Shown: positions 2,218-61,792, counted from the stretch's first letter. The stretch is DNA of 64,000 nt from Thermoplasmatota archaeon (GCA_040753455.1 JBFMEL010000001.1:5810-69809), one strand, 5' to 3'. Notes: generated from the letters alone by a model not told the origin. A program made the numbers and translations.

Positions 2218-3513
2218 ATGGTGGCTGGTGACCGCATGAGACACGAGGCGGAATGGGTGCGCCAGCAGGTCAGGGAGCACCACAGATGGTTCAGCGCGTC
2301 CCTGCCCATGATCGCGTCCGAGAACCTGATCAGCCCGCTGGCGCGGGAGCTCATGATCTGCGACTTCTGCGATCGGTACGCGGAGGGGCTGCCAGGCGAG
2401 CGCTACTACCAGGGGAACGTATACGTGGACAAGGTGGAGCTGAAGGCGATAGAGCTGGCAAGGAAGCTCTTCAAGGCAGAGCACGCGGACGTGCGCCCGA
2501 TTTCCGGCACTGTGGCGAACATGGCGGTGCTCTTCGCTCTTGCAAAGCCTGGCGACACGATCACCACCACCGCACTCTCCGATGGGGCACATATCAGCAC
2601 TGCGAAGTTCGGTGCGGTGGGGCTGCGGGGGCTGAACCCTGTCACATACCCGTTCGACACCAGGGAGATGGTGATCGATATTGATGGCACTGCAAAGCTG
2701 CTCAGGGAGGTGAAGCCCAGGATCGCGCTGTTCGGGCAGTCTGTCTTTCTGTTCCCAGTGCCGCTGAAGGAGCTGGCAGATCTCTTCCAGGAGATCGGCT
2801 GCTATGTCTGGTACGATGCGGCGCATGTCCTCGGGCTCATCGCTGGCGGCAGGTTCCAGGATCCGCTGCGAGAGGGCGCGGAGGTGATCACAGGGAGCAC
2901 GCACAAGACCCTGCCAGGACCGCAGCACGGGATCCTGCTTGCGAATCCAAGGGACGAGAAGATGAGACGCAGCTTAGAGCGCGGGACGTTCCCCGGAGTG
3001 GTGAGCAACCATCACCTCAACGCAATGGCAGCGCTGGCAATCACACTCGCAGAGCACATCGTCTTCGGCGAGGCATATGCCGATCAGGTGATCAGGAACG
3101 CCAGAGCCCTGGGTCAAGCACTGCATGACGAGGGTTTCAAGGTCCTGTGCGAGCACAAGGGGTTCACAGCATCGCACACCATCGCCGTGGATGTGACGGC
3201 ACAGGGCGGCGGAGCGAGCGTAGCCCTGGACCTCGAGAGGGCGAACATCATCGTCAACAAGAACCTCCTGCCCTGGGACACCAAGCCCAAGAGCCCCAGC
3301 GGGATCAGGCTGGGCAGCCAGGAGCTCACGCGCCTGGGGATGAGGGAAGGGGAGATGAGGGACGTGGCAAGGCTCATCGGGCGCGTGGCGATAGACAGGG
3401 AGTCGCCTGAGAAAGTAAAGGAGGACGTGGCAGAGCTCAGGCGCTCCTTCAACACTATTCATTACTGCTTCACAGAAGGGATGGAGGCTTACAAATACCA
3501 CAGCATCGTGTGA
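2218..3513 (+). CDS. glyA: Serine hydroxymethyltransferase
   Basis: Motifs IASENLISP, GSTHKTLPGP and YQGNVYVD over the full 431 aa. Confidence 0.9.
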   Translation: MVAGDRMRHEAEWVRQQVREHHRWFSASLPMIASENLISPLARELMICDFCDRYAEGLPGERYYQGNVYVDKVELKAIELARKLFKAEHADVRPISGTVANMAVLFALAKPGDTITTTALSDGAHISTAKFGAVGLRGLNPVTYPFDTREMVIDIDGTAKLLREVKPRIALFGQSVFLFPVPLKELADLFQEIGCYVWYDAAHVLGLIAGGRFQDPLREGAEVITGSTHKTLPGPQHGILLANPRDEKMRRSLERGTFPGVVSNHHLNAMAALAITLAEHIVFGEAYADQVIRNARALGQALHDEGFKVLCEHKGFTASHTIAVDVTAQGGGASVALDLERANIIVNKNLLPWDTKPKSPSGIRLGSQELTRLGMREGEMRDVARLIGRVAIDRESPEKVKEDVAELRRSFNTIHYCFTEGMEAYKYHSIV

Positions 3514-3588
3514 GGATGCTGTGTGGTGTGACTCTACCAGCCAGTATCCTATAGACACATCTCTACAGCGAATCCCATCACGCGCAGG

Positions 3589-4518
3589 TCAGCCATAGCT
3601 GTGAGTTCCGAGGAGTGCAACGATCCCCAGCTCCCTTCGTTCCCAGGCTTCGAGCGCGCTCACCATACATTCCAGGTTCGGGCATTTGGCTTCTAAGGCA
3701 TGCACGGTCTCGCGCTCTATTCTTTCGAGGTCATCCCCTGCCCTCAGCACAAAGAAGATGCTGGTGATAGTCCTCGGGTTCACCTGCAGCCATGGGGAGG
3801 CGAGGAGACGCTCCACCAGCGCGGTACCCCCTCCATCGGCAGGTATCTCCAGGCTCTCGAGCTCCAGGACGTCGGAGAGGCGGAGGACCTTCCGCAAGCT
3901 CCGCATTTCCTCTATTGAAACGAACCTGGAGACCTCGAGGGGTACGAGGGCAGCGAGGCATGACATCACGTCCAAAGCACGTGCAAAGGTCAAGCCTTTG
4001 GCTATAGCCGAGAGCCTGTCGTTCCTCAGGAGGAGCAGTCCATCACCCTCAGCCCTGAGCAGACGCGCCTGCTCCAGCGCACTCTCCCTTCTCACTGTGC
4101 CCTCCACCCCAAAGGGGACGATGGCTGTGCAGAGCGCAGGCACCTGCATGCGCCCGCATTCCCTCAGACCCGCGCGGGCAGACTCCCAGCCCGAATCGCC
4201 ACCTAACCCTGTGACCACTGTTGCGAAGTGCATGCCATCGAGCGCAGAGCGCAGGGCGTCCACAGCACGCACCCTTCCGCTCAGGTTTACCCTGGGGTCT
4301 GCGGTGAGGATCGCCCTTGCGTCCTCCATGCTCATCCGGATCTTCACATCTGCCTGAAGGGCGCTTAAGCGCTCCTGGGCACTGTTGAGCGCGATGGTCG
4401 TGATCCCCTCACTCTTAGGGAGGGAGTGCACAACGTTGCATCCGGCACCTCCGCAGCCTGCGATCGCCACTCTAGCCCTTGAACTGCCATCTATTCCTAT
4501 ACGGAGAAGGGTCATCAT
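3589..4518 (-). CDS. Divergent FtsZ/tubulin-superfamily GTPase. Likely start is the internal Met (MMTLLRIGIDG).
   Basis: N-terminal glycine loop AIAGCGGAGCNVV (FtsZ GGGTGN-like) and a tubulin-signature-like GLGGDSG. The ORF track extends it to 4653. Confidence 0.6.
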   Translation of the reverse strand: MMTLLRIGIDGSSRARVAIAGCGGAGCNVVHSLPKSEGITTIALNSAQERLSALQADVKIRMSMEDARAILTADPRVNLSGRVRAVDALRSALDGMHFATVVTGLGGDSGWESARAGLRECGRMQVPALCTAIVPFGVEGTVRRESALEQARLLRAEGDGLLLLRNDRLSAIAKGLTFARALDVMSCLAALVPLEVSRFVSIEEMRSLRKVLRLSDVLELESLEIPADGGGTALVERLLASPWLQVNPRTITSIFFVLRAGDDLERIERETVHALEAKCPNLECMVSALEAWERRELGIVALLGTHSYG

Positions 4519-16498: not shown

Positions 16499-18418
16499 AT
16501 GGAACAGCAGACGGTAGCACTGATGCGGCTCGGTAAGAGTTCGATAGCGCTGGCTGTCCCTCCGTGGATCGTAGAAAAACTAAGGCTGGAGAAGGGCGCA
16601 GGTGTATATGTCTCGTGGGACAAGAGAAGCGGTAGGATAGCAGTCGAACCTGTCCATCGCGCAAAGGAAAGGCGCCCTCATGGCTACTGGAAGAACAAGG
16701 AGCACAGGATAAGGGCTGTGAGAGAGATGGTAGAAAAGACAGGGCTGCCGCCCTCGCGGATCACGGCCAAAGAGTTCATAGCAGCGGGTCTCCAGGCGGT
16801 CATCCACCACTGCGGTAACTCCCCTATACGGGCGCTGGAAGAGGCGGGCTACACCATTGCATATTATGGACCCGGCAAGAAGAAGCAGGTGCCACAGCGT
16901 CATTGGGACAAGCGAGAGAACAGGATAGCAGCGGTGAGGTGGCTGGTTGAACACCTCGGAAAGGCGCCCTCCCAGGTGACGGTGGATGATTTCCGGGAGT
17001 GCGAGCTCACCGGCCTCTTCGATCGCCGCATGACTGTGAGGGCAGCACTGCGGGAGGCGGGATACGATGTGCCCACCTGGCACAAGGCACCGCCCCATTA
17101 CTGGGACGACCGTGAACATAGGGTGAGGGCGATCAGGCGGATGGTGCAGCTTACTGGGGGACGTCCAGAGGCTATTACAAACAAGACGTTCAGGGCGTTC
17201 CACCTCACGGGTGTGCTCAGCCAATATTACAGGTCGATACGCAATGCCCTGAAAGACGCTGGTTATAGGGTCGAAGAGTTCTCAAAAAGGCCGCAGGGGT
17301 TCTGGCATCACCGCAAAAACAGGATCGAAGCGGTGCGCGAGATGGTGACGCGCTCCGGGAAGCCCATAGAAGAGATCACGGTGAACGATTTTCGTGAGGC
17401 TGGGATCATGTGCGTGATAAATGTATGCGGTTCCATACTAGCGGCTCTCGGTGAGGCAGGATATGCGATGAAGCCCTGGGAGCGGAGACCGATGCCCACG
17501 AGTTCTTGGCAGAGCAAAGAGCACAGGGTTGCAGCCACCAGATGGCTCGTGGAAAAGATTGGAAAAAAGCCGCTAGAGATCAACCAACGGGATTTCATGT
17601 CGCATGGTCTGGGGCGCCTGCTCAAAGCATACAGCAGAGAGCGCTGCGCCTCTTACGAGAGGGGGGATCTTTTCACAGATGAGCCGGGATACCTCCTCAA
17701 ATATCCCACACGGGTGACGAGGGCGCTCGTCGAAGCAGGTTTTGATATCAAGATCGAGGACCTTGCCGGCGCCCGGCGTTGGAAAGGGGGCGGGATCTCT
17801 AGGTACTGGAAGGAAAGGGAGCGCAGGATCGCAGTGATAAGAAAGGTGGTGGACGAGCTCGGCGATCCACGAAAGGTCTCAAGGCGTCATTTCATAGAGA
17901 GGGGGGTCACAGGGCTGCTGAAGTACTACGCCTCGTTGGAAGAGGCATTAAAAGATGCGGGATATCCACTGCACCCATGGGAACGTTCTCGGGTACCAAA
18001 CAGGTACTGGCTGGCGAGAGAGAACAGGATCAAGGCTGTCAGGTGGCTCGTCGAAAAGATCGGTGGCAACCCTCGAAAGATCATGAGGAGGGATTTCAGA
18101 GAGGCTGGGATAGAGGGGCTCCTCTCCCCTGCGGGCGGCGTACTCGGAGCTGTAAAGGAAGCGGGCTATGACCTGAAACCATGGGAATATGAGCACATGA
18201 GACCACCGAGAGATACATGGGCATCCAGAGAGAACAGAGCGGCTGCTGTGAAATGGCTGCTGGCGTCCCTGATGAAAGAGCCTTCGGAGGTAAGCAGGCG
18301 AGACTTTCGACTCCTTGGTCTCAGCAGGCTTGCGAACGAGTATGGAATACCGCGCCTTCTCGAAGAAGCAGGCTGCGAGGTAGATCGTGGAATGGGAAGG
18401 AAGGCGCCCGCGTCATAG
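16499..18418 (+). CDS. AbrB/SpoVT-like N-terminal domain protein followed by eight tandem ~66-aa repeats of an uncharacterised module
   Basis: N-terminal MEQQTVALMRLGKSSIALAVPPWIVEKL (swapped-hairpin-like). The repeat consensus is W..ENR..AVRWLVEK.GK.P..I...DF...GL.GLL.....AL.EAGY...PWE. An AT-rich promoter region and a G-rich RBS lie upstream. Confidence 0.7.
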   Translation: MEQQTVALMRLGKSSIALAVPPWIVEKLRLEKGAGVYVSWDKRSGRIAVEPVHRAKERRPHGYWKNKEHRIRAVREMVEKTGLPPSRITAKEFIAAGLQAVIHHCGNSPIRALEEAGYTIAYYGPGKKKQVPQRHWDKRENRIAAVRWLVEHLGKAPSQVTVDDFRECELTGLFDRRMTVRAALREAGYDVPTWHKAPPHYWDDREHRVRAIRRMVQLTGGRPEAITNKTFRAFHLTGVLSQYYRSIRNALKDAGYRVEEFSKRPQGFWHHRKNRIEAVREMVTRSGKPIEEITVNDFREAGIMCVINVCGSILAALGEAGYAMKPWERRPMPTSSWQSKEHRVAATRWLVEKIGKKPLEINQRDFMSHGLGRLLKAYSRERCASYERGDLFTDEPGYLLKYPTRVTRALVEAGFDIKIEDLAGARRWKGGGISRYWKERERRIAVIRKVVDELGDPRKVSRRHFIERGVTGLLKYYASLEEALKDAGYPLHPWERSRVPNRYWLARENRIKAVRWLVEKIGGNPRKIMRRDFREAGIEGLLSPAGGVLGAVKEAGYDLKPWEYEHMRPPRDTWASRENRAAAVKWLLASLMKEPSEVSRRDFRLLGLSRLANEYGIPRLLEEAGCEVDRGMGRKAPAS

Positions 18419-23919: not shown

Positions 23920-24501
23920 GCAAGCGCATAGCCCATTGATGATAAAAATCTATCGAGATATGGAGATCTGCCCTCTGTGCATAGTATCTCGCATTCCATG
24001 CAACGACCTTTGAGATGTGCATCTCCACCTGCAGGATTCCGTGCCCGACCACTCGTCACCAGCGCATTCCATGCAACGACCTTTGAGAGCAGGTCAACGA
24101 TCCCACGGGCAGGTTTCAGGGCAACATCTTTTTATAATCAGAACCCCTCTTCACCACGCTAGGCTCGACCGGGGCGCTCGGCGTGCCCTTATACACCGAA
24201 ATCGTCGATAGCGGGGGTGACAGCTGAGGGCGGCGTAACCTGCCCTGCACGCGCCCTGTGCTCGACTATGAGACCCTGTCCTGCCGGGCGGGTGGCGGCT
24301 CTGCGGCGCAGCCGGAGGGCGGCGCCCTCTGCCCTGATCGTGGGGAACGGGTCAGGCCCTGACGGGAGCAGCCTAACCACGGATTACCTGCGCTGGCAGG
24401 GTTGCGGGGTCGAGAAGAGCACAGACATCCGCGCGCAGGAAAGGGCGACCACCTCAGCGGCCTAGCTCCCATCATATAATCAACACCAGGCCGCTGATCA
24501 A

Positions 24502-24960
24502 GACCACCACACAGCTACCCAACAGGACAGCTAACCCAGTGGTCGAATCCAGGGCGAGGAAACAATCTCCCATCATATTCTCGCCCTGTTCTCATCAACT
24601 TCCCAACGTTGATAGGACGTGAGGAGCATAAAAGCAAATAGAAAGCACCTCACGTCCGTATCCACGGCGAGGAAACAACCTCCAAGCGTATCCTCGCCGT
24701 GCTGCAAGCAGATAGCAACAACGATAGGACGTGAGGAGCATAAAAGCAAATAGAAAGCACCTCACGTCCGTATCCACGGCGAGGAAACAACCTCCAAGCG
24801 TATCCTCGCCGTGCTGCAAGCAGATAGCAACAACGATAGGACGTGAGGAGCATAAAAGCAAATAGAAAGCACCTCACGTCCGTGTCCACGGCGAGGAAAC
24901 AACCTCACATCATATACTCGCCGTGATAGACCGTGCTAGAATCAGATAGAAAGACCCTCA
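24502..24960. repeat. Modular hairpin-repeat locus 1: X1 element, Y hairpin, then three tandem 112-bp units (24611-24722, 24723-24834, 24835-~24946). Each unit holds an X2 and a Y hairpin.
   Basis: Units 1 and 2 are identical. X2 is ggacgtgagg-N23-cctcacgtcc. Y is (c)acggcgagga-aacaa...-(t)cctcgccgt(g). Confidence 0.7.
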
Positions 24961-25497
24961 CATCCTTACATCTTCTACGATGTCGTCCAGGAATATGATC
25001 CTGTCCGCGATGCGCCTGAGTTCTGTGCTGAGTACGCCCCTGAAGGTGGCGATCTCCACGCGCTTGCCCTTGTACTTCACCTTGTCCACTGTCTGGGCGA
25101 AATCCGCATCGCCGCTGACCAGCACCGCTGTGTCGAAGGCGTTCTCCCAGCTCAAGCACAAGAGGTCTGTGACAAGCGCAACATCCACCCCTTTCTCTGC
25201 GAAGTATAACTCCCCGCTGTTCGGGTCTGTCCTCTGCTGCAGGGGTCTCAGCACCACCTGGATGCCGCTGTACTGCAGCGATTCGTAGAACCTTGCCTGG
25301 CTGCTCTCTATCGGATCCCTGTGGCTGGAATAGTAGTACGCACGTAGCAGGTAGCGCCCGGCTGCCAGTTTTTCTACAAGTCTCCCGTAGTTGATCTTCA
25401 GGCTCGTACCGCGCTCGTCGTTGAAATGCCTCAGGGCATAGTATGTGTTTGAACCATCGATGAATATAGCCACGCGCTCCCGGTCCGAGTAGCTCAT
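24958..25497 (-). CDS. NYN-domain (LabA-like) putative ribonuclease
   Basis: VAIFIDGSN and VLVSGDADF motifs of the NYN/PIN-like fold. Confidence 0.75.
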   Translation of the reverse strand: MSYSDRERVAIFIDGSNTYYALRHFNDERGTSLKINYGRLVEKLAAGRYLLRAYYYSSHRDPIESSQARFYESLQYSGIQVVLRPLQQRTDPNSGELYFAEKGVDVALVTDLLCLSWENAFDTAVLVSGDADFAQTVDKVKYKGKRVEIATFRGVLSTELRRIADRIIFLDDIVEDVRM

Positions 25498-27540: not shown

Positions 27541-27587
27541 TATCCAAATAGAAGGCACCTCACGTCTATTTTCGGGCTTGACAGAAC

Positions 27588-27617: not shown

Positions 27618-27691
27618 GGGCCCGTGGGGTAGTCCGGACATCCTTTCGGCCTTCGGAGCCGATGACCCGAGTTCGAATCTCGGCGGGCCCG
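27618..27691 (+). tRNA. tRNA-Arg (anticodon TCG)
   Basis: Manual cloverleaf fold. Acceptor GGGCCCG/CGGGCCC. Anticodon stem TCGGC/GCCGA with loop CTTCGGA. T-arm CCGAG-TTCGAAT-CTCGG. Confidence 0.85.
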
Positions 27692-27729
27692 CTTACCCAC
27701 AACCCTTATAATCCACGCGCGCATACTAA

Positions 27730-27833
27730 TCCCGGCGGGCCCATGGTCTAGCGGTTACAGCTTGTGGTGTTGGCCAGGCAGCCGCAAATGACGGGTGTCT
27801 CACACACACCAGATCTCCGGTTCGAATCCGGAT
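27730..27833 (+). tRNA. tRNA-Val (anticodon CAC) with a ~31-nt intron at a non-canonical position in the D-loop/D-stem region
   Basis: Acceptor GGGCCCA/TGGGCCC. 5' D-stem and loop GTCT-AGCGGTTA (27739-27750). The insert is 27751-27781. Then TGAC-G-GGTGT-CTCACAC-ACACC-AGATC-TCCGG-TTCGAAT-CCGGA. The spliced product is 73 nt. Confidence 0.6.
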
Positions 27834-28215
27834 GGGCCCACATTTCTGTCCCGCAGAAAAAACGCAGCAGAAGAAATGTGGTAGGACGTGAGGAGCATAA
27901 AAGCAGATAGAAGCACCTCACGTCCGTGCCCAGGGCGAGGAAACACTCTCCTATCATATTCTCGCCCTGTTCGGAGCTCTAGGACAGACACAGCAAAAAC
28001 ACAGCAAAAGAAATGTGGTATAGACCACCTCACAGCTAACCAACAGGGCAGCTAACCAAGTGGTCGAACCCACGGCGAGGAAACAAACACACATCATATT
28101 CTCGCCGTGTTCTCAGCAAAAAAGAAACGCTGGTAGGACTACCGCACAACTAACCAATCGTGCAGTTAACCAAGTGGTCCGTACCCACGGCGAGGAAACA
28201 ATCTCTTCAGCCTAT
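27834..28215. repeat. Modular hairpin-repeat locus 2, immediately 3' of tRNA-Val: D hairpin, X2, Y, D-like, X1, Y, X1, Y
   Basis: D is cacatttctg-N-agaaatgtg. X2 is ggacgtgagg..cctcacgtcc. X1 is ggac(t/c)ac..cagctaacc..cagctaacc.agtggtcc. Y is ggcgagga-aaca..-ctcgcc. Confidence 0.65.
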
Positions 28216-28554: not shown

Positions 28555-30195
28555 TCACACCACGGGCACCAGCGAAAGTCTTCCTAGGGCGGAGGGGTCC
28601 TCGATGATGAGGGCGTGCAGCCCGGTGTACGGCTTCTCCCCGTACAGGAATGTCTGATCGCCCAGGCGCTCGACCTTGACATGGATGCGCGCGGTGGACA
28701 TGATGAGGCGCTCGGTGTCGGGTTCCGAGGTGAAGCCAATGAATATAGCGCCCACCTTCCTCACCGCGTAGATGAGCGGTATGAGTGAGCCTTCCACGCG
28801 CTCATCGTACATCTTGCTGAGAGTGTCTAAGGAAAGGAGGATGACGAAAGGCTGTTGGGAGCCTGATAGGGCATATTCGATCCCTTCCCAGCGAAAGTCT
28901 GTCTCCACATTCGTCCCTTCCAGCAGGATGGTGTTCTTTAGGATGTCTTTGCTGAGACAGGTGGTAGGCTCGAAGACCCGCACGCGCTCGTAGAAGCGCT
29001 CCTCCCCGATCTGGCTGCTCAGCATCTGATAGGCTGTATGCCCTGTGCCATGCCTGGGGGGCAAGATGCAGACCCCTCTCTCCTGGGAGACGAAGTTAGC
29101 CACCATCGTATAACAGAGATTGCTCACGATGCTCGGTGAGACGTTATCTGCGAACTCGAAGACACCGACCGAGCCGTGCGCGAGTCCCCCGATGAGAAAA
29201 TCTATGTCTGCAGAGCCTGTGGACACGATATCTCCGCTGAGATCCGGAATAGGCTTGAAGTGCCTGGGCTTTCCTTCGCCGGAGCCTGGATCACCGATGG
29301 AATACCTCGGGCACTCGAAGACGCTCATTCGGCCGTCCAAAAGGGTGTAGCACACGGTCGGCTCGGTGATCGGACAGCCGCGGAGCTTCTCGATCGTTAA
29401 CACCCTCAACCGCCTTCCCTTGTGATACTGGGAGTGAAGGCGTATCACGCCGTCACCCAGATAGTCGAGCTGCGACTTCTCCGCCTCTTCGAGGATGTAC
29501 ACGAGGTTGGCTCCCGAGTTCTCGACCAGGTCCCTCTGAATAGTGTTCACGAGGCGCACCTGCGCCACTCCGTACTTCTCACTGAGGGAGTTGATGCTGT
29601 CGAACACGATCAGAGATTTCTTTGGCAACGCGCGCTCAACCACGTCATAGGCCCACTCGATCTCTGGGAGGTCGGACGACAGGTCAAGTGTCAACACCCC
29701 GTTCACCAGATCCCCGCGGTCCCCCTCTGCGGTCACGTCCGCCTCGCCCTCTATGATCTGGCCTTCGAGCTTCCTCAGTCCTGATCGATCCACTGCCACT
29801 GGCATGGTCTCGGTCCCCCTCAGCACCTTCAGGAGCGACTTCGCCTCCTGTTTGACAGCCTCGGGGAGACGCGCCTGGCATGTGCCCTTCCTCCCTCCGG
29901 GATGCAGGGCGTTCAGAAAACCACGTCCCCCGGCAATCAGGTCGTTCCTGCGCACCTTCTTCGCCAGCCATGGAAACTGGTTGTATAGACTCCTGTCAGT
30001 CACCCTCCCTGAGATGTAGTGCGTCGCCTCGATCCCCGAGAGCTCCTCGATGAGCTGCAGCGCGAACGTGGTCTTACCAGTGCCCGCATCCCCCTTTACT
30101 AGCAGGGAGTGCCCGCCAGGGCTCTCGAAGAAATCGAGTATCTGCTGAGGGATCTGTCCCTGGGCTGTTCCTCGCTTAGAACGCATTATACTCAA
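28555..30195 (-). CDS. KaiC/RecA-superfamily ATPase with two RecA-like domains. The second domain lacks a Walker A.
   Basis: Domain 1 Walker A GDAGTGKTTFALQ. Domain 2 has IGGLAHGSVGVFEFADN in the P-loop position. Confidence 0.8.
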   Translation of the reverse strand: MSIMRSKRGTAQGQIPQQILDFFESPGGHSLLVKGDAGTGKTTFALQLIEELSGIEATHYISGRVTDRSLYNQFPWLAKKVRRNDLIAGGRGFLNALHPGGRKGTCQARLPEAVKQEAKSLLKVLRGTETMPVAVDRSGLRKLEGQIIEGEADVTAEGDRGDLVNGVLTLDLSSDLPEIEWAYDVVERALPKKSLIVFDSINSLSEKYGVAQVRLVNTIQRDLVENSGANLVYILEEAEKSQLDYLGDGVIRLHSQYHKGRRLRVLTIEKLRGCPITEPTVCYTLLDGRMSVFECPRYSIGDPGSGEGKPRHFKPIPDLSGDIVSTGSADIDFLIGGLAHGSVGVFEFADNVSPSIVSNLCYTMVANFVSQERGVCILPPRHGTGHTAYQMLSSQIGEERFYERVRVFEPTTCLSKDILKNTILLEGTNVETDFRWEGIEYALSGSQQPFVILLSLDTLSKMYDERVEGSLIPLIYAVRKVGAIFIGFTSEPDTERLIMSTARIHVKVERLGDQTFLYGEKPYTGLHALIIEDPSALGRLSLVPVV

Positions 30196-35749: not shown

Positions 35750-35857
35750 CCCGACTTAGCTCAGACTGGCTGGAGCGGCTGACTGTAGTAGGTCATCGGC
35801 AACGCCGATTCAGCTGCTGAAATCAGCAGGTCCCCGGTTCAAATCCGGGAGTCGGGA
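35750..35857 (+). tRNA. tRNA-Tyr (anticodon GTA) with a ~33-nt intron at the canonical 37/38 position
   Basis: Acceptor CCCGACT/AGTCGGG. D-arm GCTC..GAGC. Anticodon stem GCTGA/TCAGC with loop CTGTAG[intron]A. 5-nt variable loop. T-arm CCCGG-TTCAAAT-CCGGG. Confidence 0.65.
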
Positions 35858-35880
35858 TTATTTTATTAGCATATACGAGA

Positions 35881-36320
35881 CTCCTGGATAGGACTACCGC
35901 ACAGCTAACCAACTGGACAGCTAACCCAGTGGTCCGTTTCCGGGAGACGGGATCACATTTCTGTTTGCATCAATCAAGCAGAGAAAGAAATGTGATAGAC
36001 CGCAAGGAGCATAAAAGCAAACAAAAATCACCTTGCGGTCGTGTCTACGGCGAGGAAACAATCTCACATCGTATCCTCGCCGTGCTGCAAGCAGATAGAA
36101 ACACCGATAGGACTACCGCACAATTACCCAATATAACAGTTAACCAAGTGGTCCGTGTCCACGGCGAGGAAACAATCTCACATCGTATCCTCGCCGTGCT
36201 CTCATCATCCTCCCAGCAATGATAGGACGTGAGGAGCATAAAAGCAAGTAGAAAGCACCTCACGTCCGTGTCCAGGGCGAGGAAACAATCTCCCATCATA
36301 TACTCGCCGTGATAGAAGGA
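35881..36320. repeat. Modular hairpin-repeat locus 3, 3' of tRNA-Tyr: X1, D, X2 (variant stem), Y, X1, Y, X2, Y
   Basis: Same element families as loci 1 and 2. The X2 copy at ~36002-36040 has the stem gaccgcaagg/ccttgcggtc with the loop conserved. Confidence 0.65.
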
Positions 36321-36402
36321 GATAGAAACAAAGATAGGCCTCCTGGGTAGCTCACCCAATGAGGGGAGATCCCAATGGCCTCAGAAAATGTGAACCGTCC
36401 AT

Positions 36403-37506
36403 CTACACCGTCCATCTGCCATCCTTGTAGACCAGCGCGCCGTCGGCGTATATCCTTCCGCCTTTGGTCATGTCCTTCAGGAGGTCCCAATGTATCACTG
36501 AGAAGTTCTTCGATCCTGTCTCAGGATAGCCGTTGCCCAGCGCCATGTGGATCGTGCCGTCCATCTTCTCGTCGAAGAGCATGTGCTTGGTGAACCGCCT
36601 GATCCCTGGGTTGGTGCCTATCGCCACCTCGCCCAGCCTGCATGCGCCCTCGTCCGTTTTGAGGAGAGCCTTCAGCAGCTCTTCTCCTTTCAGCGCTTGA
36701 GCCCTCACCACCTTTCCACTGCGGAAGGTGAGGCGGATGTCCTCTATCTCGCGCCCCATGTATATCCCAGGGAAGGTGAACCTGATCCTGCCCTCCACGG
36801 AGCTCTCTGCAGGAGAGGTGAAGATCTCGCCATCGGGAAGGTTCTTCTTGCCGTCGCAGTTCTCCCATCTCCTGGATTCGATGGACATGGAGAGGTCTGT
36901 GTCCTCACCAGTGAAGCGCAGTTCGCTCACCCCTTTCAAGCGTGAGATCATCCCTGCCTGCAGTCTGGAGATCCTCTTCCATTCCTTGATGGGATCATCC
37001 CTGTCCACGAGGCAGGAGGCATAAACGAACTCCTCATACTCCATGAGTGACATCGAGGCTTCCTGAGCATCCGCGTTCCCAGGGAACGGCAGTCCAACCC
37101 ATTTCAGGAAGCCATCAGCGGTGCGCCTGTTGAATATCTCCACCAAATCCTTTCTGGATGCTGCGGTCATCCTTGACTTCTCAGGCGGTACATTGGTCAT
37201 ATTTCTGGTGTTCGTGCTCATCGCCACAGCAATGAGGGCGTCCATCTGTTCATAGAGGAACCTTCGGAAAGGGGATACATGGGTGAGCTGGTCTTTCGTC
37301 GCATACCTGAAAAAGATATCCTCCAAGCCATCGATGCTGCCGATGAAGGTGGGATATGCCCCAACATCCAAGCCCTCCTTGTACAATGCCCGTGCCAGCG
37401 CTGCGGCGCCCGGGGGCGCTGAGATTAATATCTCCTGCCCCTTCTTCGCTTCCACGGAGTACCTCACTGCAAGCCTGGCCAAACGCTCGATCCTCGGATC
37501 TGCCAT
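36403..37506 (-). CDS. Aminopeptidase, M29 (AmpS/PepS) family
   Basis: Full-length similarity pattern to thermophilic metalloaminopeptidases (e.g. EVAIGTNPG). Confidence 0.75.
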   Translation of the reverse strand: MADPRIERLARLAVRYSVEAKKGQEILISAPPGAAALARALYKEGLDVGAYPTFIGSIDGLEDIFFRYATKDQLTHVSPFRRFLYEQMDALIAVAMSTNTRNMTNVPPEKSRMTAASRKDLVEIFNRRTADGFLKWVGLPFPGNADAQEASMSLMEYEEFVYASCLVDRDDPIKEWKRISRLQAGMISRLKGVSELRFTGEDTDLSMSIESRRWENCDGKKNLPDGEIFTSPAESSVEGRIRFTFPGIYMGREIEDIRLTFRSGKVVRAQALKGEELLKALLKTDEGACRLGEVAIGTNPGIRRFTKHMLFDEKMDGTIHMALGNGYPETGSKNFSVIHWDLLKDMTKGGRIYADGALVYKDGRWTV

Positions 37507-41418: not shown

Positions 41419-44400
41419 ATGTATGGCGATGCAGATAAAGGGATCATGTCAGATTCCGCCACCGGGGCGAAGGGCAAGAAGGGGCAGCAGAAGCACTCCA
41501 GGAAGATCGCGGCGCTCGCTGCAGTTATCGACGCCGCAAGGGCAAAGTTAAAGGAGACGGTGCAGAAACATTCTGGGAAGATCGCAGCACTCGGCGCTGT
41601 TATCGCCGGCGCGGCTGGCGGGTTCGGACTTGTCGGGCTCTTCACTGCAGCGCTGCCGTTCCTCGGTCACAGACTGGTCGGGGAGTTCGCAGCGGCTGTG
41701 GGCGTAGAAGGCCTTGTGAAACTCGGTGAGCGAGCAGTCACAGGCGAGCCTCTGAGAAAAGAGGACCTCAGGACGCTGGAGGAGGCGCAGAGCCGATTGA
41801 TGGAGTTGCTCGCAGACTCAGCGACAGCTACGCAAAACCTGCATGCTCTTTGCGCGCAACTTTTGCAGGAGGAGCAGCTCACCCAGCACCTGACGAGCGA
41901 CATGATCAAAAGCCTTCGCGACGATATAAATAAGCTCAGCGCAGAAAATCAGGAGCAGTTCTCTGAGATCATCGGAAAGCTCGACGCGCTCCAGGAGAAG
42001 CTCGAAGAAGTGCACGAAGAGGTGCGGCGCTGCGGGCTCGTCAGCTTGAAAGAGGAAGTCTCCAGCATCAGCCGGGAGGGTCTAGAAGAGCAGCACAAAA
42101 GATTCGATGAGTATTTTCTGGGCGGAGTCCCGTGGGGCGTAATCGTATACGAGATCGATGTGCGGCGCGAGGTCACGACAAAAATCATCAACAGATTGAA
42201 GGGGGGCAACAGCATGTTGCTCCTCGGCAAGAGTGGCTCCGGAAAGAGCACGATACTGAAGCGCGCGGCGTATCTGTTGTTTCTCGAAGGATACAACGTG
42301 TTTTACAACTGCGGCAGTATCGATGTGGAGCGCGCGTACAGGTTGCTCACGGAGGAAGAGGGTACAAAGGTCGTGGTTGTGGACGATGCTGATCTTCGCT
42401 GGGACGCTATCAAAGCACTGCACGAATGCTGCATAGAGCATGGGCGTACTGACATCGTGATGCTCTTAGCCGAGCGCACGGAGCGGTTCAAGCACGGCAC
42501 GGCAGGCACAGCTATCAAAGAAGAAAAATTGACACTCACCCGTAATGATGTAAAGGAGCTTTGGAGGTCCACTGGTGATGTTGTGCCAGTAAGAGATGAT
42601 GTGATGGACTTCCTCCTCCAGTGGTGCGGCGATGAGTATATCCTCGCCAAGATATACTCGCTGGGTTACACGGGCGATTCAGAAGAACGATTGGAGGAAC
42701 TGGCGCGCACACGGTATGAGGCGCTGAGGGAGTTGCCCCGAAACCTCAGGACACCACTATTTCCTATAGCATGCATGGCTGCGTACGATTGTGCGCTACC
42801 GCGAAGGGTGTTCGAGAGGTTAGGGCATGATGCTGCGGACCTTGAGGAGTTGGCGAGGCGCGGGTATGTATCTATCGAGGACAGTGCCCTGCGGGGCTAC
42901 CACCCGGTGATTGCGAAGAGGTTTCTCCGCTGCTATCTTGAAGGGGGGGCATATGATTTTGTAGATTGCGTTGTGAACCGCATCCTGCCGCGGCTCGGCG
43001 AGGGCGAAGAGAAAGAAGCTGACGCGGGACTGTGTTTCTCGCTGGGAACAAACATTGCTGTGGAGCAAGAAGATAGGATAGAAAAGGACAAAAAAGTGCT
43101 CGAGGTTGCATTGAAATCTCTGGACAGATGTCTCGAACTGACGCCCGACCACGCGGAGGCGTGGAACAACAAAGGCAACACGCTCGATAGCATGGACCGC
43201 TACGAGGACGCGCTCGTTGCTTATGATAAGGCGCTCGCCATCAACACGCAGTTGGCGGAGGCGTGGAATAACAAAGGCACCACACTCCACCATATGCAGC
43301 GCTGTGATGAGGCACTCGTCGCTTATGATATGGCACTTGCACTCAACCCAGACTATGTAGAGGCATGGAACAACAAAGGCACTCTGGTCTCCAACATGCA
43401 GCTGCATGATGAGGCACTAGCCGCTTATGATAAGGCACTTGCACTCAACCCCGACTATGCGGCGGCGTGGAACAACAAAGGTTTCATGCTCATACGCATG
43501 GAGCGCTATGATGAGGCGCTTGCCGCCTGCGACAAAGCGCTCCAGCTCAACTCGCGGTATGTGGAGGCGTGGAACAACAAAACCCTCGCGCTCGCCCACA
43601 TGCAGCGTTGTGATGAGGCGCTTGCCGCCTGCGAGGAAGCGCTCCAACTCAATCCACGGTATGCAGAGGCGTGGAACAACAAAGGCTTCACGCTCGCATG
43701 CATGGAGCGCTATGATGAGGCACTAGCCGCTTATGATAAGGCGCTCGAATTCAACCCGCAACTTGCAGAGGCCTGGAACAACAAAGGCAACACGCTCGCA
43801 CACATGCAGCGGTACGAGGAAGCGCTCGCCGCCCATGATAAGGCGCTCGAACTCAACCCGCAGTTGACGGAGGCGTGGTACAACAAAGGCAACACACTCA
43901 ACCAAATGCAACGCTATGATGAGGCGCTCGCCGCATACGACAAAGCGGTCGAACTCAATCCACAATTTGCGAAGGCGTGGAACAACAAAGGCCTCACGCT
44001 CGCACACGTGCAGCGCTACGAGGAAGCGCTCGCCGCTTATGATAGGGCGCTCGCCATCAACCATCAGCTTGCGGAGGTGTGGTACAACAAAGGCCTCACG
44101 CTCGCACACGTGCAGCGCTACGAGGAAGCGCTCGCCGCCTATGATAAGGCGCTTGCCATCAACCCGCAGTTGGCGAAGGGGTGGGGCGCGCGCGGGCTTA
44201 CGGAGCTGAGTATGGGGAGGTACGAACATGCGGCGTTTGATTCTGCATGTGCGCACTTTCTGACACGCCTTGGGATAGGGCAGGAGAGATTGTTGGAGCC
44301 AACCGCGCGTCAGTTCATGCAGGCTAGCGATGCGCTGCGCGGCACGGGTGCGTTCCACGATGCAGCCATCCTTTACGCTGTGATGGCTTTTGAGAAAAGG

Positions 44401-44691
44401 GCTGAAGTTGCTGCGCCATTGTGGCGTGAACGTGAGAAGATCACACACATACTTGCCCGCTGCATGCTGTACGATATCGTGGGCGAAGCGCTGACCGAGA
44501 TTAAGCCGGCGATGGATGAGGAGCGCAAAGTAATCGAATGGTATGCCCGCAGCTTGGCGGAGAAAAAGGTCCATGAGGAGTTCCGGGAATACCTTTGGGC
44601 GCTGGTGCGCGGCGACGCGCGGCGCGACGCGGCGTTTGCACTTGCCACATTGTACCTGCTCGTGGAAGAAGGCGTGATGGTTTCGCCATAG
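41419..44691 (+). CDS. STAND-type P-loop NTPase: N-terminal TM/coiled-coil region, central NTPase and ~13 C-terminal TPR repeats
   Basis: Walker A LLLGKSGSGKSTILKRAAYLL and Walker B VVVVDDAD. Hydrophobic segment AALGAVIAGAAGGFGLVGLFTAALPFL. The repeated AWNNKGxxLxxMxRYDEALAAYDKAL module is a TPR. The true start is possibly the Met at 41446. Confidence 0.75.
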   Translation: MYGDADKGIMSDSATGAKGKKGQQKHSRKIAALAAVIDAARAKLKETVQKHSGKIAALGAVIAGAAGGFGLVGLFTAALPFLGHRLVGEFAAAVGVEGLVKLGERAVTGEPLRKEDLRTLEEAQSRLMELLADSATATQNLHALCAQLLQEEQLTQHLTSDMIKSLRDDINKLSAENQEQFSEIIGKLDALQEKLEEVHEEVRRCGLVSLKEEVSSISREGLEEQHKRFDEYFLGGVPWGVIVYEIDVRREVTTKIINRLKGGNSMLLLGKSGSGKSTILKRAAYLLFLEGYNVFYNCGSIDVERAYRLLTEEEGTKVVVVDDADLRWDAIKALHECCIEHGRTDIVMLLAERTERFKHGTAGTAIKEEKLTLTRNDVKELWRSTGDVVPVRDDVMDFLLQWCGDEYILAKIYSLGYTGDSEERLEELARTRYEALRELPRNLRTPLFPIACMAAYDCALPRRVFERLGHDAADLEELARRGYVSIEDSALRGYHPVIAKRFLRCYLEGGAYDFVDCVVNRILPRLGEGEEKEADAGLCFSLGTNIAVEQEDRIEKDKKVLEVALKSLDRCLELTPDHAEAWNNKGNTLDSMDRYEDALVAYDKALAINTQLAEAWNNKGTTLHHMQRCDEALVAYDMALALNPDYVEAWNNKGTLVSNMQLHDEALAAYDKALALNPDYAAAWNNKGFMLIRMERYDEALAACDKALQLNSRYVEAWNNKTLALAHMQRCDEALAACEEALQLNPRYAEAWNNKGFTLACMERYDEALAAYDKALEFNPQLAEAWNNKGNTLAHMQRYEEALAAHDKALELNPQLTEAWYNKGNTLNQMQRYDEALAAYDKAVELNPQFAKAWNNKGLTLAHVQRYEEALAAYDRALAINHQLAEVWYNKGLTLAHVQRYEEALAAYDKALAINPQLAKGWGARGLTELSMGRYEHAAFDSACAHFLTRLGIGQERLLEPTARQFMQASDALRGTGAFHDAAILYAVMAFEKRAEVAAPLWREREKITHILARCMLYDIVGEALTEIKPAMDEERKVIEWYARSLAEKKVHEEFREYLWALVRGDARRDAAFALATLYLLVEEGVMVSP

Positions 44692-58062: not shown

Positions 58063-60047
58063 GGTTGGAGGGAGCTACGAAGATAGGCGTATACGTCTGC
58101 GAGTGCGGGATCAATATCTCAGCCGCTGTGGACGTGGCAAAGGTCGCAGAGCATGCAAAGGGATTGCCTGATGTTGTGGTGAGCAGGTACTACAAATACA
58201 TGTGCTCCGACCCTGGACAGTCCCTCATAAAGAATGATATAAAGGAGATGGGGCTCACCCACGTGGTGGTAGCCTCCTGCTCCCCGAGGATGCACGAGCC
58301 CACCTTCAGAGCGGTGGTCGAGGAGGGGGGGGTGAACCCCTACTGCTTCGAGATGGCGAACATCAGGGAGCACTGCTCCTGGGCGCACATGCGTGAAAAG
58401 GATAAGGCGACAGAGAAAGCAAAGGACCTGGTGAGGATGGCCGTAGCCAAGGCAAGGCTGCTTCGACCGCTGCAGAGAAAGCAGGTGCCCGTCACGCCCG
58501 CCGCGCTGGTGATCGGGGGTGGGATCGCAGGCATACAAGCCGCGCTGGAGATCGCAGAGAGCGGGTTCAAGACCTACCTGGTAGAGCGGACACCGAGCAT
58601 CGGGGGTCGCATGGCGCAATTAGACAAGACCTTCCCCACACTGGACTGCTCCGCCTGCATCCTCACACCTAAGATGGTGGATGTCGCCAGGCACCCCAAC
58701 ATCGAGCTGCTCACATACTCGGAGGTCACGGGTGTCGAGGGATACATCGGCAACTTCAAGGCGACAGTAAAGAAGAAAGCCAGATATGTGGACATAGACA
58801 AATGCGTGGGCTGCGGTCGGTGCGCCGAGGCATGCAGGCTAAAGGGACGTGTAGCCGACGAGTTCAATGAGAAACTCGGCAAACGCAGTGCGATATACGT
58901 GCCGTTTCCTCAGGCAGTGCCGCTGAAGTACACGATCGACCCAGAGCGTTGCATATTTTTAAAGACTGGTAAATGCGGCGACTCCCCGCTGTGCGTGGAA
59001 GCCTGTGAGGCAAATGCCATCGACCATCAGCAGAAAGATGATGTCGTTGACCTTGAAGTGGGCACCATCGTTGTGGCGACAGGCTTCGATCTATACGATC
59101 CATCCCAGAAACCAGAATACGGGTATGGAAAGATCAAAAATGTGATCACTGGCTTGGAGTTCGAGAGGCTCGTATCCGCCTCTGGTCCCACAGGGGGGCA
59201 CATCGAGGTAAACGGTAAGGAGCCCAGGAGGGTGGTCTTCATCCAGTGCGTGGGATCGAGGGACAAGGAGGGCAACGAGTACTGCTCGCGCGTGTGCTGC
59301 ATGTACACAGCCAAGCACGCGCATCTCGTGAGGGAGAAGATCCCCGGCGCCAATGTCACGATCTATTATACCGATGTAAGAGCCTTTGGTAAAGGTTTCG
59401 AGGAGTTCTACAACAGGGTGAAGGGCGAGGGCGTTGCATACCGCAGAAGGGAGCTGGACGATGCCATCGAGGTCGTGGAGGATGATGGCAGGACCATCGT
59501 CAAAGCCCAGGGCCACGAAGATATAGAGGCAGACTTGGTGGTGCTGGCGACCGCGATCGTTCAGCGAACAGATATCGAAGAGCTTGCCAGGGTGTTGAAG
59601 GTCTCACGCGGTGCAGACGGCTTCTTCCTGGAGATTCATCCAAAACTAAGACCCATGGACACTGCCACCGGAGGGATATTCATAGCAGGCTGCTGCCAGT
59701 CCCCAAAGGATATCCCTGACACGGTCGCGCAGGCGAGCGGTGCGGCAGCCAAGGCATCGATACCCCTCTCGCAGGGGAAGATCGATCTAGACCCCCAGAG
59801 GTCTGAGGTCATCGATGAGAACTGCGACGGCTGCGCATACTGCATAGAGCCGTGTCCGTTCAAGGCACTGACATTAATCGAGTATATGCGGGATGGCGCG
59901 ATCAAGAAGACGGTGGAAGCAAATGAGGCTCTGTGCCAGGGCTGCGGTGTCTGCCAAGCCACGTGTCCCAAACAGGGGATCATCGTGAGAGGGTTCACGA
60001 CCAAGCAGATCTCTGCAATGGTCGATGCCCTTCTCGGGGTGGTGTAG
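58059..60047 (+). CDS. hdrA: Heterodisulfide reductase subunit A
   Basis: N-terminal Cys cluster [13 protein letters not shown] motif [13 protein letters not shown], and inserted ferredoxin domains. GTGA overlap start. Confidence 0.9.
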   Translation: MRLEGATKIGVYVCECGINISAAVDVAKVAEHAKGLPDVVVSRYYKYMCSDPGQSLIKNDIKEMGLTHVVVASCSPRMHEPTFRAVVEEGGVNPYCFEMANIREHCSWAHMREKDKATEKAKDLVRMAVAKARLLRPLQRKQVPVTPAALVIGGGIAGIQAALEIAESGFKTYLVERTPSIGGRMAQLDKTFPTLDCSACILTPKMVDVARHPNIELLTYSEVTGVEGYIGNFKATVKKKARYVDIDKCVGCGRCAEACRLKGRVADEFNEKLGKRSAIYVPFPQAVPLKYTIDPERCIFLKTGKCGDSPLCVEACEANAIDHQQKDDVVDLEVGTIVVATGFDLYDPSQKPEYGYGKIKNVITGLEFERLVSASGPTGGHIEVNGKEPRRVVFIQCVGSRDKEGNEYCSRVCCMYTAKHAHLVREKIPGANVTIYYTDVRAFGKGFEEFYNRVKGEGVAYRRRELDDAIEVVEDDGRTIVKAQGHEDIEADLVVLATAIVQRTDIEELARVLKVSRGADGFFLEIHPKLRPMDTATGGIFIAGCCQSPKDIPDTVAQASGAAAKASIPLSQGKIDLDPQRSEVIDENCDGCAYCIEPCPFKALTLIEYMRDGAIKKTVEANEALCQGCGVCQATCPKQGIIVRGFTTKQISAMVDALLGVV

Positions 60048-60529: not shown

Positions 60530-61792
60530 GTGGGCGTATACGTCTGCGAGTGCGGGATCAATATCTCAGCCACTGTGGATGTGCCTGAGGTCGCAGAGGA
60601 TGCAAAGGGATTGCCTGATGTGGCAGTGAGCAGGTACTACAAATACATGTGCTCCGACCCTGGGCAGTCCCTCATAAAGAATGATATAAAGGAGCTCGGG
60701 CTCACCCACGTGGTGGTAGCCTCCTGCTCACCGAGGATGCACGAGCCCACCTTCAGAGCAGCGGTCGAGGAAGCGGGAGTGAACCCCTACTGCTTCGAGA
60801 TGGCGAACATCAGGGAGCACTGCTCCTGGGCGCACATGCATGAAAAGGATAAGGCGACAGAGAAAGCAAAGGACCTGGTGAGGATGGCCGTAGCCAAGGC
60901 AAGGCTTCTTCGGCCCATAGAAAAGATGCGTGTGCCCGTCACCCCCGCCGCACTGGTGATTGGTGGGGGGATCGCAGGCATACAAGCCGCGCTGGACATA
61001 GCAGACAGAGGGTTCAAGACCTACCTGATAGAGCGGACACCGAGCATCGGGGGTCGCATGGCGCAATTAGACAAGACCTTCCCCACACTGGACTGCTCCG
61101 CCTGCATCCTCACGCCCAAGATGGTGGATGTCGCCAGGCACCCCAACATCGAACTGCTCACATACTCGGAGGTCGCCGGGATCGGTGGATATGTAGGCAA
61201 TTACAAAGTGAAGGTCAAGAAGAAGGCAAGATCGGTGGACGGATCGAAATGTACCGGGTGCGGGCTGTGCACAGAGCACTGCCCAGTGATCCTTCAGCCG
61301 CAGATACAGGAGATGCCAAAAGAGGCGCCTTCTGTGAGAGACAAGGAATTCATCGAGGGGCTGATCGCCAAGCATTCGCATCTTAAGGCTCCTGTGGTGC
61401 AGATCCTGCTGGACGTGAACGAGAAATACAGATACCTTCCAAAGGAGATCCTGAGATATCTCTCCTTTAGGCTGGAGATGCCGCTGAGCACCATATACAG
61501 AGTCGCTACCTTCTATAAAGCGCTCAGTCTCGAAATGAGGGGGAAATACCATATAAAAGCCTGCCTGGGCACCGCCTGCCACGTGAGAGGCGCCAGAAAG
61601 GTCGTTGACGCGATCAGGGACTACATCGCCAAGACAGAAGAAGGGCTCTTCTCCCTCGAGCCCGTGAACTGCCTCGGCGCATGCGCCCTTGGTCCTATCA
61701 TGGTGGTGAACGAGGAGTACCATGGACACATGACCATCGACAAGGTAGCTGAAATACTCACATCCCTGGAGGGAGGCAATGAAAAAGATTAA
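60530..61792 (+). CDS. Chimeric protein: N-terminal ~240 aa of HdrA fused to a NuoE-like thioredoxin-fold [2Fe-2S] domain
   Basis: The first ~700 nt are ~93% identical to hdrA at 58083-58790. The C-terminus has NuoE/HoxF-type motifs [10 protein letters not shown]...[12 protein letters not shown] start at 60530. Confidence 0.7.

Follow-up and report, generated by a model that had tools for sequence, protein, structure and literature searches.

Tandem two-hairpin units directly behind the signal recognition particle RNA and tRNA genes of a Thermoplasmatota archaeon: a candidate structured 3' trailer

Noncoding RNAs (ncRNAs) can be linked to tRNA genes and freed by tRNA processing, as with the 3' external transcribed spacer RNAs of Escherichia coli and the tRNA-snoRNA dicistrons of plants. 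In archaea, a lineage-specific hairpin-forming motif is known just behind tRNA genes, where it was proposed to act as a signal for 3' maturation. Repetitive extragenic palindromic (REP) elements and bacterial interspersed mosaic elements (BIMEs) have been reported in archaea as well as in bacteria, and tRNA genes provide attachment (att) sites for integrative elements, a setting in which archaeal tyrosine recombinases have been described (PMC12306157 and PMC8371274, respectively). Here, we analyzed a 64,000-nt stretch of DNA from a Thermoplasmatota archaeon (GCA_040753455.1 JBFMEL010000001.1:5810-69809), referred to below as the window, in which all coordinates are counted unless a contig is named. 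It holds three arrays of two-hairpin units, located directly behind its signal recognition particle (SRP) RNA gene and its tRNA genes, which we tentatively interpret as a structured 3' trailer of these stable-RNA genes.

Each unit of about 112 nt is laid out as an A/C-rich linker ending in GRUA, an X hairpin, a gap of 4 to 5 nt, and a Y hairpin of 9 to 11 bp. Two types of X hairpin are interchangeable, taking the same position within the unit: X1, which combines an outer stem of 6 to 7 bp with an inner AGCU/AGCU helix and displays two AGCUAACCAA motifs, and X2, whose 14-bp stem contains a bulged G and closes an AGCA-rich loop of 23 nt. A basal helix (GAUAG.../...C-G-UNUC) is common to some copies of both. 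To locate the units, we built a covariance model (R1) from eight X1-Y units and searched the whole 64 kb with it, all filters being switched off. The model identified 11 units, all on the plus strand: four behind the SRP RNA gene, three behind a pair of tRNA-Arg and tRNA-Ala genes, and four behind a tRNA-Tyr gene. Scores on this strand ranged from 45 to 114 bits, with only 13 to 26 bits on the minus strand, where the model matched the palindromic Y hairpin. No unit was detected elsewhere in the window, the other intergenic regions being empty and inverted copies absent. All stable-RNA loci of the window, three in number and all on the plus strand, carry an array directly downstream and in the same sense. 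An earlier note on this DNA had stated that the element families recur at two tRNA-adjacent loci. This holds, the loci being 27842-28205 (behind tRNA-Arg and an intron-bearing tRNA-Ala) and 35859-36381 (behind an intron-bearing tRNA-Tyr), and the association is stronger than stated there; the SRP RNA gene ahead of the first array had gone unrecognized.

Array 1 begins about 30 nt behind the SRP RNA gene, which is preceded by a TTTTTATAA box at 24129-24137. Gene and array consist of the following features:

24157-24467 (+): archaeal SRP RNA gene (Rfam RF01857, 153.1 bits against a gathering score of 96.5, full-length model match)
24455-24496 (+): SRP RNA junction hairpin, CAGCGGCCU (24455-24463, the last nucleotides of the SRP RNA) pairing with AGGCCGCUG (24488-24496); 9 bp, -16.1 kcal/mol, z score -4.6, 0 of 200 shuffles as good
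24498-24594 (+): unit 1, X1 (24502-24544) and Y (24550-24588, CAGGG/CCCTG variant); R1 112.8 bits, covariation in the X1-Y alignment
24611-24722 (+): unit 2 (112 nt), X2 (24615-24657), Y (24663-24701) and linker; Tandem Repeats Finder (TRF), R1 53.8 bits, pairing counts in the X2-Y alignment
24723-24834 (+): unit 3, an exact copy of unit 2
24835-24931 (+): unit 4, X2 (24839-24881) and Y (24887-24925, with a 9-bp stem and another loop); R1 49.2 bits
24926-24964 (+): degenerate X2 remnant at the array end (repeat family D12, 82% copy at 24943-24964), with no stable fold

The description of this array in the earlier note was borne out throughout. TRF places the tandem repeat at 24611-24925, giving 2.8 copies of a 112-bp period at 97% matches. 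As had been claimed, there is no difference between its first two units, and the identity under a shift of 112 positions spans 161 nt; the third differs from the preceding units at 18 positions, mostly in the Y loop and the linker. All three tandem units contain the perfect 10-bp inverted repeat GGACGTGAGG/CCTCACGTCC around a 23-nt A-rich loop, and this repeat extends into the full 14-bp X2 helix. The second hairpin, Y (CACGGCGAGGA/TCCTCGCCGTG), is found in all units with 11 bp, reduced to 9 bp in the third tandem unit, and the X1-Y unit reported ahead of the array lies at 24498-24594. Both motifs occur far beyond chance: the window contains 10 copies of the Y core GGCGAGGAAACA and 6 copies of the X2 loop core, all on the plus strand, compared to expected numbers of 0.3 and 0.28. 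Coding potential is absent, as noted before, given that 112 is not a multiple of 3 and that the open reading frames (ORFs) of the array shift frame between units; these ORFs encode only 88 and 79 amino acids (minus strand) and 44 amino acids (plus strand). When their concatenated translations were compared with 5.8 billion proteins, no match was obtained, so no related arrays mistranslated by gene callers were found. At its far end, the X2 remnant overlaps the stop codon of a convergent NYN-domain gene (24958-25497, minus strand; PF01936). As a separate observation, the linker after the Y hairpin of unit 1 (24594-24613) holds an extra small hairpin (AUCAAC/GUUGAU, z score -6.2), and another (AUCAU/AUGAU) was read by eye in a linker of array 3 (36203-36222); the 112-bp units lack such a hairpin after Y.

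Array 2, which resembles two arrays fused, lies behind the tRNA-Arg and tRNA-Ala genes:

27545-27566 (+): solo 3' half of X2 (loop end and 3' stem) upstream of the tRNA-Arg promoter, matching X2 in 21/22 nt; no other module fragment lies outside the arrays
27618-27692 (+): tRNA-Arg(TCG) gene (ARAGORN; Rfam tRNA)
27737-27841 (+): tRNA-Ala(GGC) gene with a 30-nt intron (ARAGORN intron option; Rfam tRNA); array 2 starts at its last base
27838-27881 (+): tRNA-Ala junction hairpin, CCACAUUUCU (27838-27847, the last 3 nt of tRNA-Ala plus trailer) pairing with AGAAAUGUGG (27872-27881, just before the first X); 10 bp, z score -3.45
27880-27975 (+): unit, X2 (27884-27925) and Y (27931-27969, CAGGG/CCCTG variant); R1 51 bits, X2-Y alignment
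27991-28020 (+): copy of the junction (D) hairpin's loop and 3' strand, CAGCAAAAACACAGCAAAAGAAATGTGGTA, without a 5' partner (repeat family D18), 90% identical to 27854-27883
28019-28115 (+): unit, X1 (28023-28065) and Y (28071-28109); R1 114 bits
28133-28205 (+): truncated end unit, X1 (28137-28179) and the 5' half of Y; R1 54.7 bits

Array 3 lies behind the tRNA-Tyr gene:

35750-35857 (+): tRNA-Tyr(GTA) gene with a 33-nt intron (ARAGORN with introns; Rfam tRNA, 50.5 bits); array 3 starts at its last base
35859-35938 (+): 80-nt segment between the tRNA-Tyr 3' end and its duplicate, with a T-run, the TATA-like TTTTATTA and X1 (35892-35934); R1 45.5 bits
35939-35953 (+): duplicate of the tRNA-Tyr 3' end, TCCGGGAGACGGGAT, matching TCCGGGAGTCGGGAT at 35844-35858 in 14/15 nt; the original D hairpin comes next
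35952-35996 (+): tRNA-Tyr junction hairpin behind this duplicate, AUCACAUUUCU (35952-35962) pairing with AGAAAUGUGAU (35986-35996); 11 bp, -16.7 kcal/mol, z score -4.8
35994-36090 (+): unit, X2 (35998-36040) with the fully compensated variant stem GACCGCAAGG/CCTTGCGGTC, and Y (36047-36085); R1 60.9 bits
36107-36204 (+): unit, X1 (36111-36153) and Y (36160-36198); R1 101.5 bits, inner-helix covariation
36221-36317 (+): unit, X2 (36224-36266) and Y (36273-36311), whose chimeric stem has a single G.G mismatch; R1 46.6 bits
36318-36381 (+): array end, a GATAGAAGGAGATAGAAACAAAGATAG linker and a weakly supported third X-type hairpin (36336-36381, -21.9 kcal/mol, z score only -1.3, single copy)

The trailer of every array starts with a junction hairpin: the 5' strand of its stem takes in the last 3 to 9 nt of the mature RNA, and these stems fit each host RNA's own 3' end. 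The loop of the SRP RNA junction hairpin contains CTCCCATCATATAAT, which is similar to a Y loop and to a TATA box. Moreover, the 3' strand of the junction stem recurs in degenerate form in the linkers ahead of the later X hairpins, with the consensus AGAAAYGNNGRUA.

We assessed whether the hairpins are maintained by compensatory change in two alignments, one of X1-Y units (8 sequences from 3 genomes) and one of X2-Y units (5 distinct sequences). In the X1-Y alignment, 97.6% of the cells are paired (6 bp in the X1 outer stem, 4 bp in the inner AGCU/AGCU helix, and 11 bp in Y), four pairs show double changes, and none of 500 shuffles was as good; when the 3' partner was slid by one to three columns, only 32 to 45% of the cells could pair. 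In the X2-Y alignment, all cells of the X2 helix are paired (100%), and this helix accounts for five of the six doubly changed pairs of the whole structure. Four X2 double changes sit in the single copy at 35998-36040, which retains the loop core unchanged. Over both alignments, about 18 cells are G.U or U.G on the plus strand (11 in X1-Y and 7 in X2-Y), while an inspection of the alignments by eye revealed no A.C among the 7 unpaired cells. Since G.U cells are present and A.C cells are not, the fold is better on the plus strand, which is the sense of the upstream RNA genes. These patterns argue that the arrays are under selection for pairing.

The base composition differs between the strands in a way that bears on transcription. 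On the plus strand, the arrays contain 32 to 34% A and 14 to 20% T and have no run of four or more T, whereas the minus strand has many runs of T4 to T6. Oligo-T is the intrinsic termination signal of archaea; therefore, sense transcription would be expected to cross the arrays, and antisense transcription would tend to stop within them. Behind the SRP RNA gene (CATATAAT) and behind tRNA-Tyr (TTTTATTA), a TATA-like box precedes the first X1 by about 25 nt. However, with 263 clusters of AT-rich 8-mers in the window, such boxes are too frequent to count as evidence of promoters. A search of the window for targets complementary to the X1 loop returned only the X1 copies themselves.

Conservation in relatives, which the earlier note had left to be looked for, was found: the same modules occur on two further archaeal metagenome contigs, in both cases behind intron-bearing tRNAs. 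The first, JBFMGN010000454.1 (L046; 3780 bp), carries a tRNA-Arg(CCG) gene with two noncanonical introns, one in the D-loop and one in the T-loop, which ARAGORN recognized after in silico intron removal. Behind this gene lie a junction hairpin and then four X1-Y units in tandem, repeating about every 115 nt. The array has a GC content of 53% and the flanks one of 39%. By eye, the junction stem, CCGCAUUUCU/AGAAAUGCGG, reads as the tRNA-Ala stem with a compensated change; in the RNAfold prediction, 8 bp of this stem are formed, which is not significant (z score -0.8). L046 is binned as Spirochaetota and carries an archaeal-type intron-bearing tRNA together with the repeat family; the contig is probably misbinned. 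The second, L203 (GCA_016214785.1, contig JACRNV010000025.1), is 65% (CoaBC) and 77% (PurP) identical to the window at the protein level. The window's own PurP and CoaBC match, at 100% identity, proteins encoded on a 77-kb contig of an NCBI metagenome-assembled genome labeled "Candidatus Thermoplasmatota archaeon". Here, the intron-bearing tRNA is followed by a junction hairpin in a 6+4-bp version, which alone is not significant (z score -1.1), and by one X1-Y unit, 19 nt past which the locus ends. Its Y stem, CACGACGAG/CTCGTCGTG, is retained by a compensatory change, and its loop differs. Among the loci around PurP and CoaBC homologues, synteny is not conserved and only L203 carried a unit; ten other Thermoplasmatota loci had none.

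Wider searches added no further members, the family being rare in the collections covered. In a genomic contig collection of species representatives, the Y pattern gave 72 single chance matches in bacteria and one real relative, L046. Metagenome contigs matched the palindromic GC-rich pattern through chance terminator-like hairpins, with no other array motifs among the matches listed. Viral contigs gave no match for Y and six chance matches for the X2 loop without the other motifs, and a blastn comparison with plasmids and phages returned no match to the arrays. Across the three genomes, conservation is uneven: the sequence of the X1 loops is preserved, but for Y only the stem is, a pattern that fits functional constraint. 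X1 copies from different genomes are 79 to 91% identical, even though flank GC contents are about 20 points apart, and those within the window are 77 to 91% identical.

Two side observations concern these loci. A further motif, AGCTCTAGGACAG, short and conserved, is located after a Y hairpin in array 2 (27975-27987) and also after the last Y in L046 (approximately 3072-3084, minus strand). In addition, the tRNA genes with long introns (27737-27841 and 35750-35857 in the window, approximately 3567-3706 on the minus strand of L046, and 13994-14096 in L203) were missed by default ARAGORN and at the Rfam gathering threshold, and routine annotation of this lineage probably undercounts tRNAs.

Taken together, six lines of evidence, i.e., the exclusive position in the same sense, the tailored junction stems, the compensatory changes, the G.U pairs on one strand, the missing T-runs, and the uneven conservation, lead us to propose selection on a plus-strand transcript coupled to the upstream RNA. 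Our preferred explanation, which we would put at a little less than an even chance, is that the arrays are a lineage-specific structured 3' trailer RNA of stable-RNA genes with a processing, protective, or protein-binding role. Under this scenario, transcription of the array would run in the same direction as that of the upstream RNA gene and would come either from read-through or from initiation at the TATA-like boxes just behind the gene. The first trailer hairpin would then pair with the last nucleotides of the mature RNA and so couple its end structurally to the trailer, and the units would fold independently, exposing conserved single-stranded A/C-rich loops. The likeliest roles would be the control or protection of 3'-end maturation (by RNase Z in the case of tRNAs and by 3' trimming in the case of the SRP RNA) and/or the release of protein-binding hairpin RNAs. 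Copy number may shift by unequal recombination.

It is tempting to speculate further that the arrays represent a new class of archaeal ncRNA: tails of tRNA and SRP RNA genes that would be freed by the tRNA 3' endonuclease and whose A/C-rich loops (AGCUAACCAA and AGCA-rich) might titrate or scaffold an RNA-binding protein, or in which the junction hairpin might gate maturation. We consider such a tRNA-punctuated sponge RNA or maturation switch rather unlikely. As far as we found, neither the architecture nor the tie to both SRP RNA and tRNA genes has been described in the literature.

Several points weigh against a structured trailer. While location, strand, structure, covariation, conservation in relatives, and the lack of T-runs can be read directly from the DNA, we infer plus-strand transcription of the arrays, as well as their processing and molecular function. 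The covariation comes from few, related sequences, and the family is present in only three genomes. G.T pairs are also tolerated in hairpins of single-stranded DNA. The T4 runs behind tRNA-Tyr and behind the L203 tRNA could stop part of the read-through. Another tRNA of the same metagenome-assembled genome as L203 (L195) has no array and is directly followed by a T5 run, and the PurP locus of the closest relative has neither tRNA-Tyr nor array. Finally, the identical tandem copies, the solo half of X2 at 27545-27566, and the 15-nt duplicate of the tRNA-Tyr end around X1 look like the footprint of mobile or recombining DNA.

This last point leads to the strongest alternative, which we regard as doubtful but worth serious consideration: a selfish, nonautonomous DNA repeat (REP/BIME-like, related to miniature inverted-repeat transposable elements [MITEs], or integrase associated) that inserts into the 3' flanks of stable-RNA genes as safe, conserved targets and piles up in tandem in the same orientation. 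Its hairpins would be kept because an enzyme encoded elsewhere recognizes them as single-stranded DNA. Near-identical modules at different loci (e.g., 24501-24618 and 28022-28139, which are 84% identical over 118 nt) would be expected from such an element, the identical adjacent units point to recent duplication, and the equal X1 identity between and within genomes, despite the 39% GC of the L046 flanks, is compatible with horizontal spread. In the same vein, the 15-nt duplicates flank an inserted 80-nt X1 segment like attL and attR, a half-X2 stands alone upstream of tRNA-Arg, and presence among tRNAs and relatives is patchy. The G(A/G)TAG before X hairpins also resembles the GT[AG]G beside REPs of the type associated with REP-associated tyrosine transposases (RAYTs). 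However, the units are not bounded by terminal inverted repeats with target-site duplications, and transposase, integrase, and reverse transcriptase were all absent among the 28 window proteins scanned. The empty intergenic regions and the lack of inverted copies are unlike REPs and MITEs, there is no match in viral contigs, plasmids, or phages, and a difference in constraint between X1 and Y is likewise unfavorable to this alternative. An inserted element would not bring along junction hairpins complementary to the 3' end of each host RNA. If the arrays were nevertheless selfish, they would echo the eukaryotic retroelements that target genes of RNA polymerase III and would be, to our knowledge, the first prokaryotic repeat known to target the flanks of both tRNA and SRP RNA genes.

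A second alternative places the function at the level of the DNA or the minus strand, the arrays being a barrier between highly expressed stable-RNA genes and convergent protein genes in which the complements of the A-rich loops and linkers would act as oligo-U stops for incoming minus-strand transcription. Three of three window arrays do face a convergent gene on the minus strand, encoding the NYN protein (ending at 24958), a GvpD/KaiC-like protein (ending at 28555), and an M29 peptidase (ending at 36403), and the strand bias of T-runs described above is in line with this idea. In L046, however, the downstream gene is codirectional with the array, oligo-T termination needs neither compensatory changes nor G.U pairs confined to the plus strand, and a barrier would explain neither the conservation of the X1 loop sequence nor the presence of junction hairpins, so we judge it to be improbable. 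Finally, although array 1 abuts a gene for a predicted PIN-like nuclease (NYN), we can hardly credit that it is the repeat-RNA antitoxin of a type III toxin-antitoxin-like (ToxIN-like) system, given that the NYN gene is convergent with the folded array strand rather than in series with it, the other four arrays have no NYN neighbor, and two-hairpin units of 112 nt are unlike ToxI-type repeats of 36 to 45 nt.

Known RNA and DNA families do not account for the arrays either. A comparison with Rfam, which the earlier note had suggested, assigned them to no family: with Rfam 15, only SRP RNA and tRNA pass in the window, the best scores within the arrays are 10 to 15 bits compared to thresholds of 40 to 100, and nothing was found in L046. 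C/D box and H/ACA RNAs were rejected on the grounds that their boxes do not occur in the required order on either strand and that the Rfam snoRNA matches are at chance level (E values of 0.76 to 8.5); known ribozymes and bulge-helix-bulge processing motifs were rejected on sequence or Rfam grounds. Integron attC sites can be dismissed as well, because the sequence reads no GTTRRRY at the 3' sides of the hairpins and there is no integrase among the 28 proteins scanned. Similarly, no match to a known MITE or insertion sequence was found. A MITE origin was rejected, with units abutting head to tail and no direct repeats flanking X or Y (GATA before, GTNT after); the sole duplication is that of the tRNA-Tyr 3' end.

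Elsewhere in the window, a 639-amino-acid protein (16499-18418, plus strand) is composed of about nine tandem repeats of 66 to 70 amino acids with a weak match to Pfam HNH_repeat, which is associated with homing endonucleases; DNA repeat family D7 lies within this gene. A 1090-amino-acid ORF (41419-44691) contains ten copies of a 102-bp coding repeat (34 amino acids, TPR type) at 43153-44184. In a gene cluster for CxxCxxC ferredoxin-like, possibly heterodisulfide-reductase-like, proteins, the segments 58086-58385 and 60533-60832 form a 300-bp duplicate with 94% identity, 2447 bp apart, which suggests a recent tandem gene duplication.

The formation of 3' ends of stable RNAs in archaea and the content of their trailers are poorly understood. 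A conserved modular trailer with a hairpin predicted to pair with the mature end would therefore offer a handle on 3'-end maturation or protection in an uncultivated Thermoplasmatota lineage, and, if the units were released, they would be candidates for a new family of abundant small RNAs. The covariance model can in any case be used to annotate such regions, which might otherwise be called as spurious ORFs.

How do the arrays compare to the systems described so far? With their regularly spaced direct repeats able to form hairpins, in an archaeon, they resemble clustered regularly interspaced short palindromic repeats (CRISPR). Yet, in agreement with the earlier note, they are not a CRISPR array, since what separates the repeats is repeated as well: X alternates with Y, linkers are conserved, adjacent units are identical, and there are no unique spacers. 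The arrays also resemble REPs and BIMEs. In both cases, short extragenic hairpins occur in many copies and clustered arrays, their stems are kept by compensatory change, and they occupy 3' flanks of transcription units, a position from which REPs protect upstream RNA against 3' exonucleases. However, REPs are imperfect palindromes of 20 to 40 nt with a short loop, whereas the stems described here have 6 to 14 bp, the loops have 17 to 30 nt, and the loop sequence is conserved. Also unlike REPs and BIMEs, 112-nt units of two different hairpins are arranged in one orientation without inverted pairs (REPINs), no gene for a RAYT-type (IS200/IS605-like Y1) transposase was found among the 28 proteins scanned, and the scatter of REPs is replaced by a confinement of all 11 units in the window to 3 stable-RNA loci. 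Like att sites, the arrays are found at tRNA 3' ends, and in one case the tRNA end is directly duplicated (35844-35858 and 35939-35953; 15 nt, one mismatch). Such a duplicate is absent at tRNA-Ala, at the SRP RNA gene, and in L046 (the L203 locus ends 19 nt after its unit), only 80 nt separate the two copies at tRNA-Tyr, no integrase or recombinase domain was found in the genes neighboring the arrays, and, unlike at att sites, an SRP RNA gene also serves as host and the hairpins covary. The archaeal motif behind tRNA genes is alike in being a lineage-specific hairpin former with a proposed part in 3' maturation; it is a single short palindrome, CGTTA(N)9TAACG, which has no sequence similarity to the arrays and is unreported for SRP RNA. 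The proposed mode of expression is that of the tRNA-linked ncRNAs, by analogy with which the arrays may ride on a strong stable-RNA promoter and be separated by the tRNA 3' endonuclease. Whereas those are single RNAs, the arrays described here are built as tandem, modular hairpin units.

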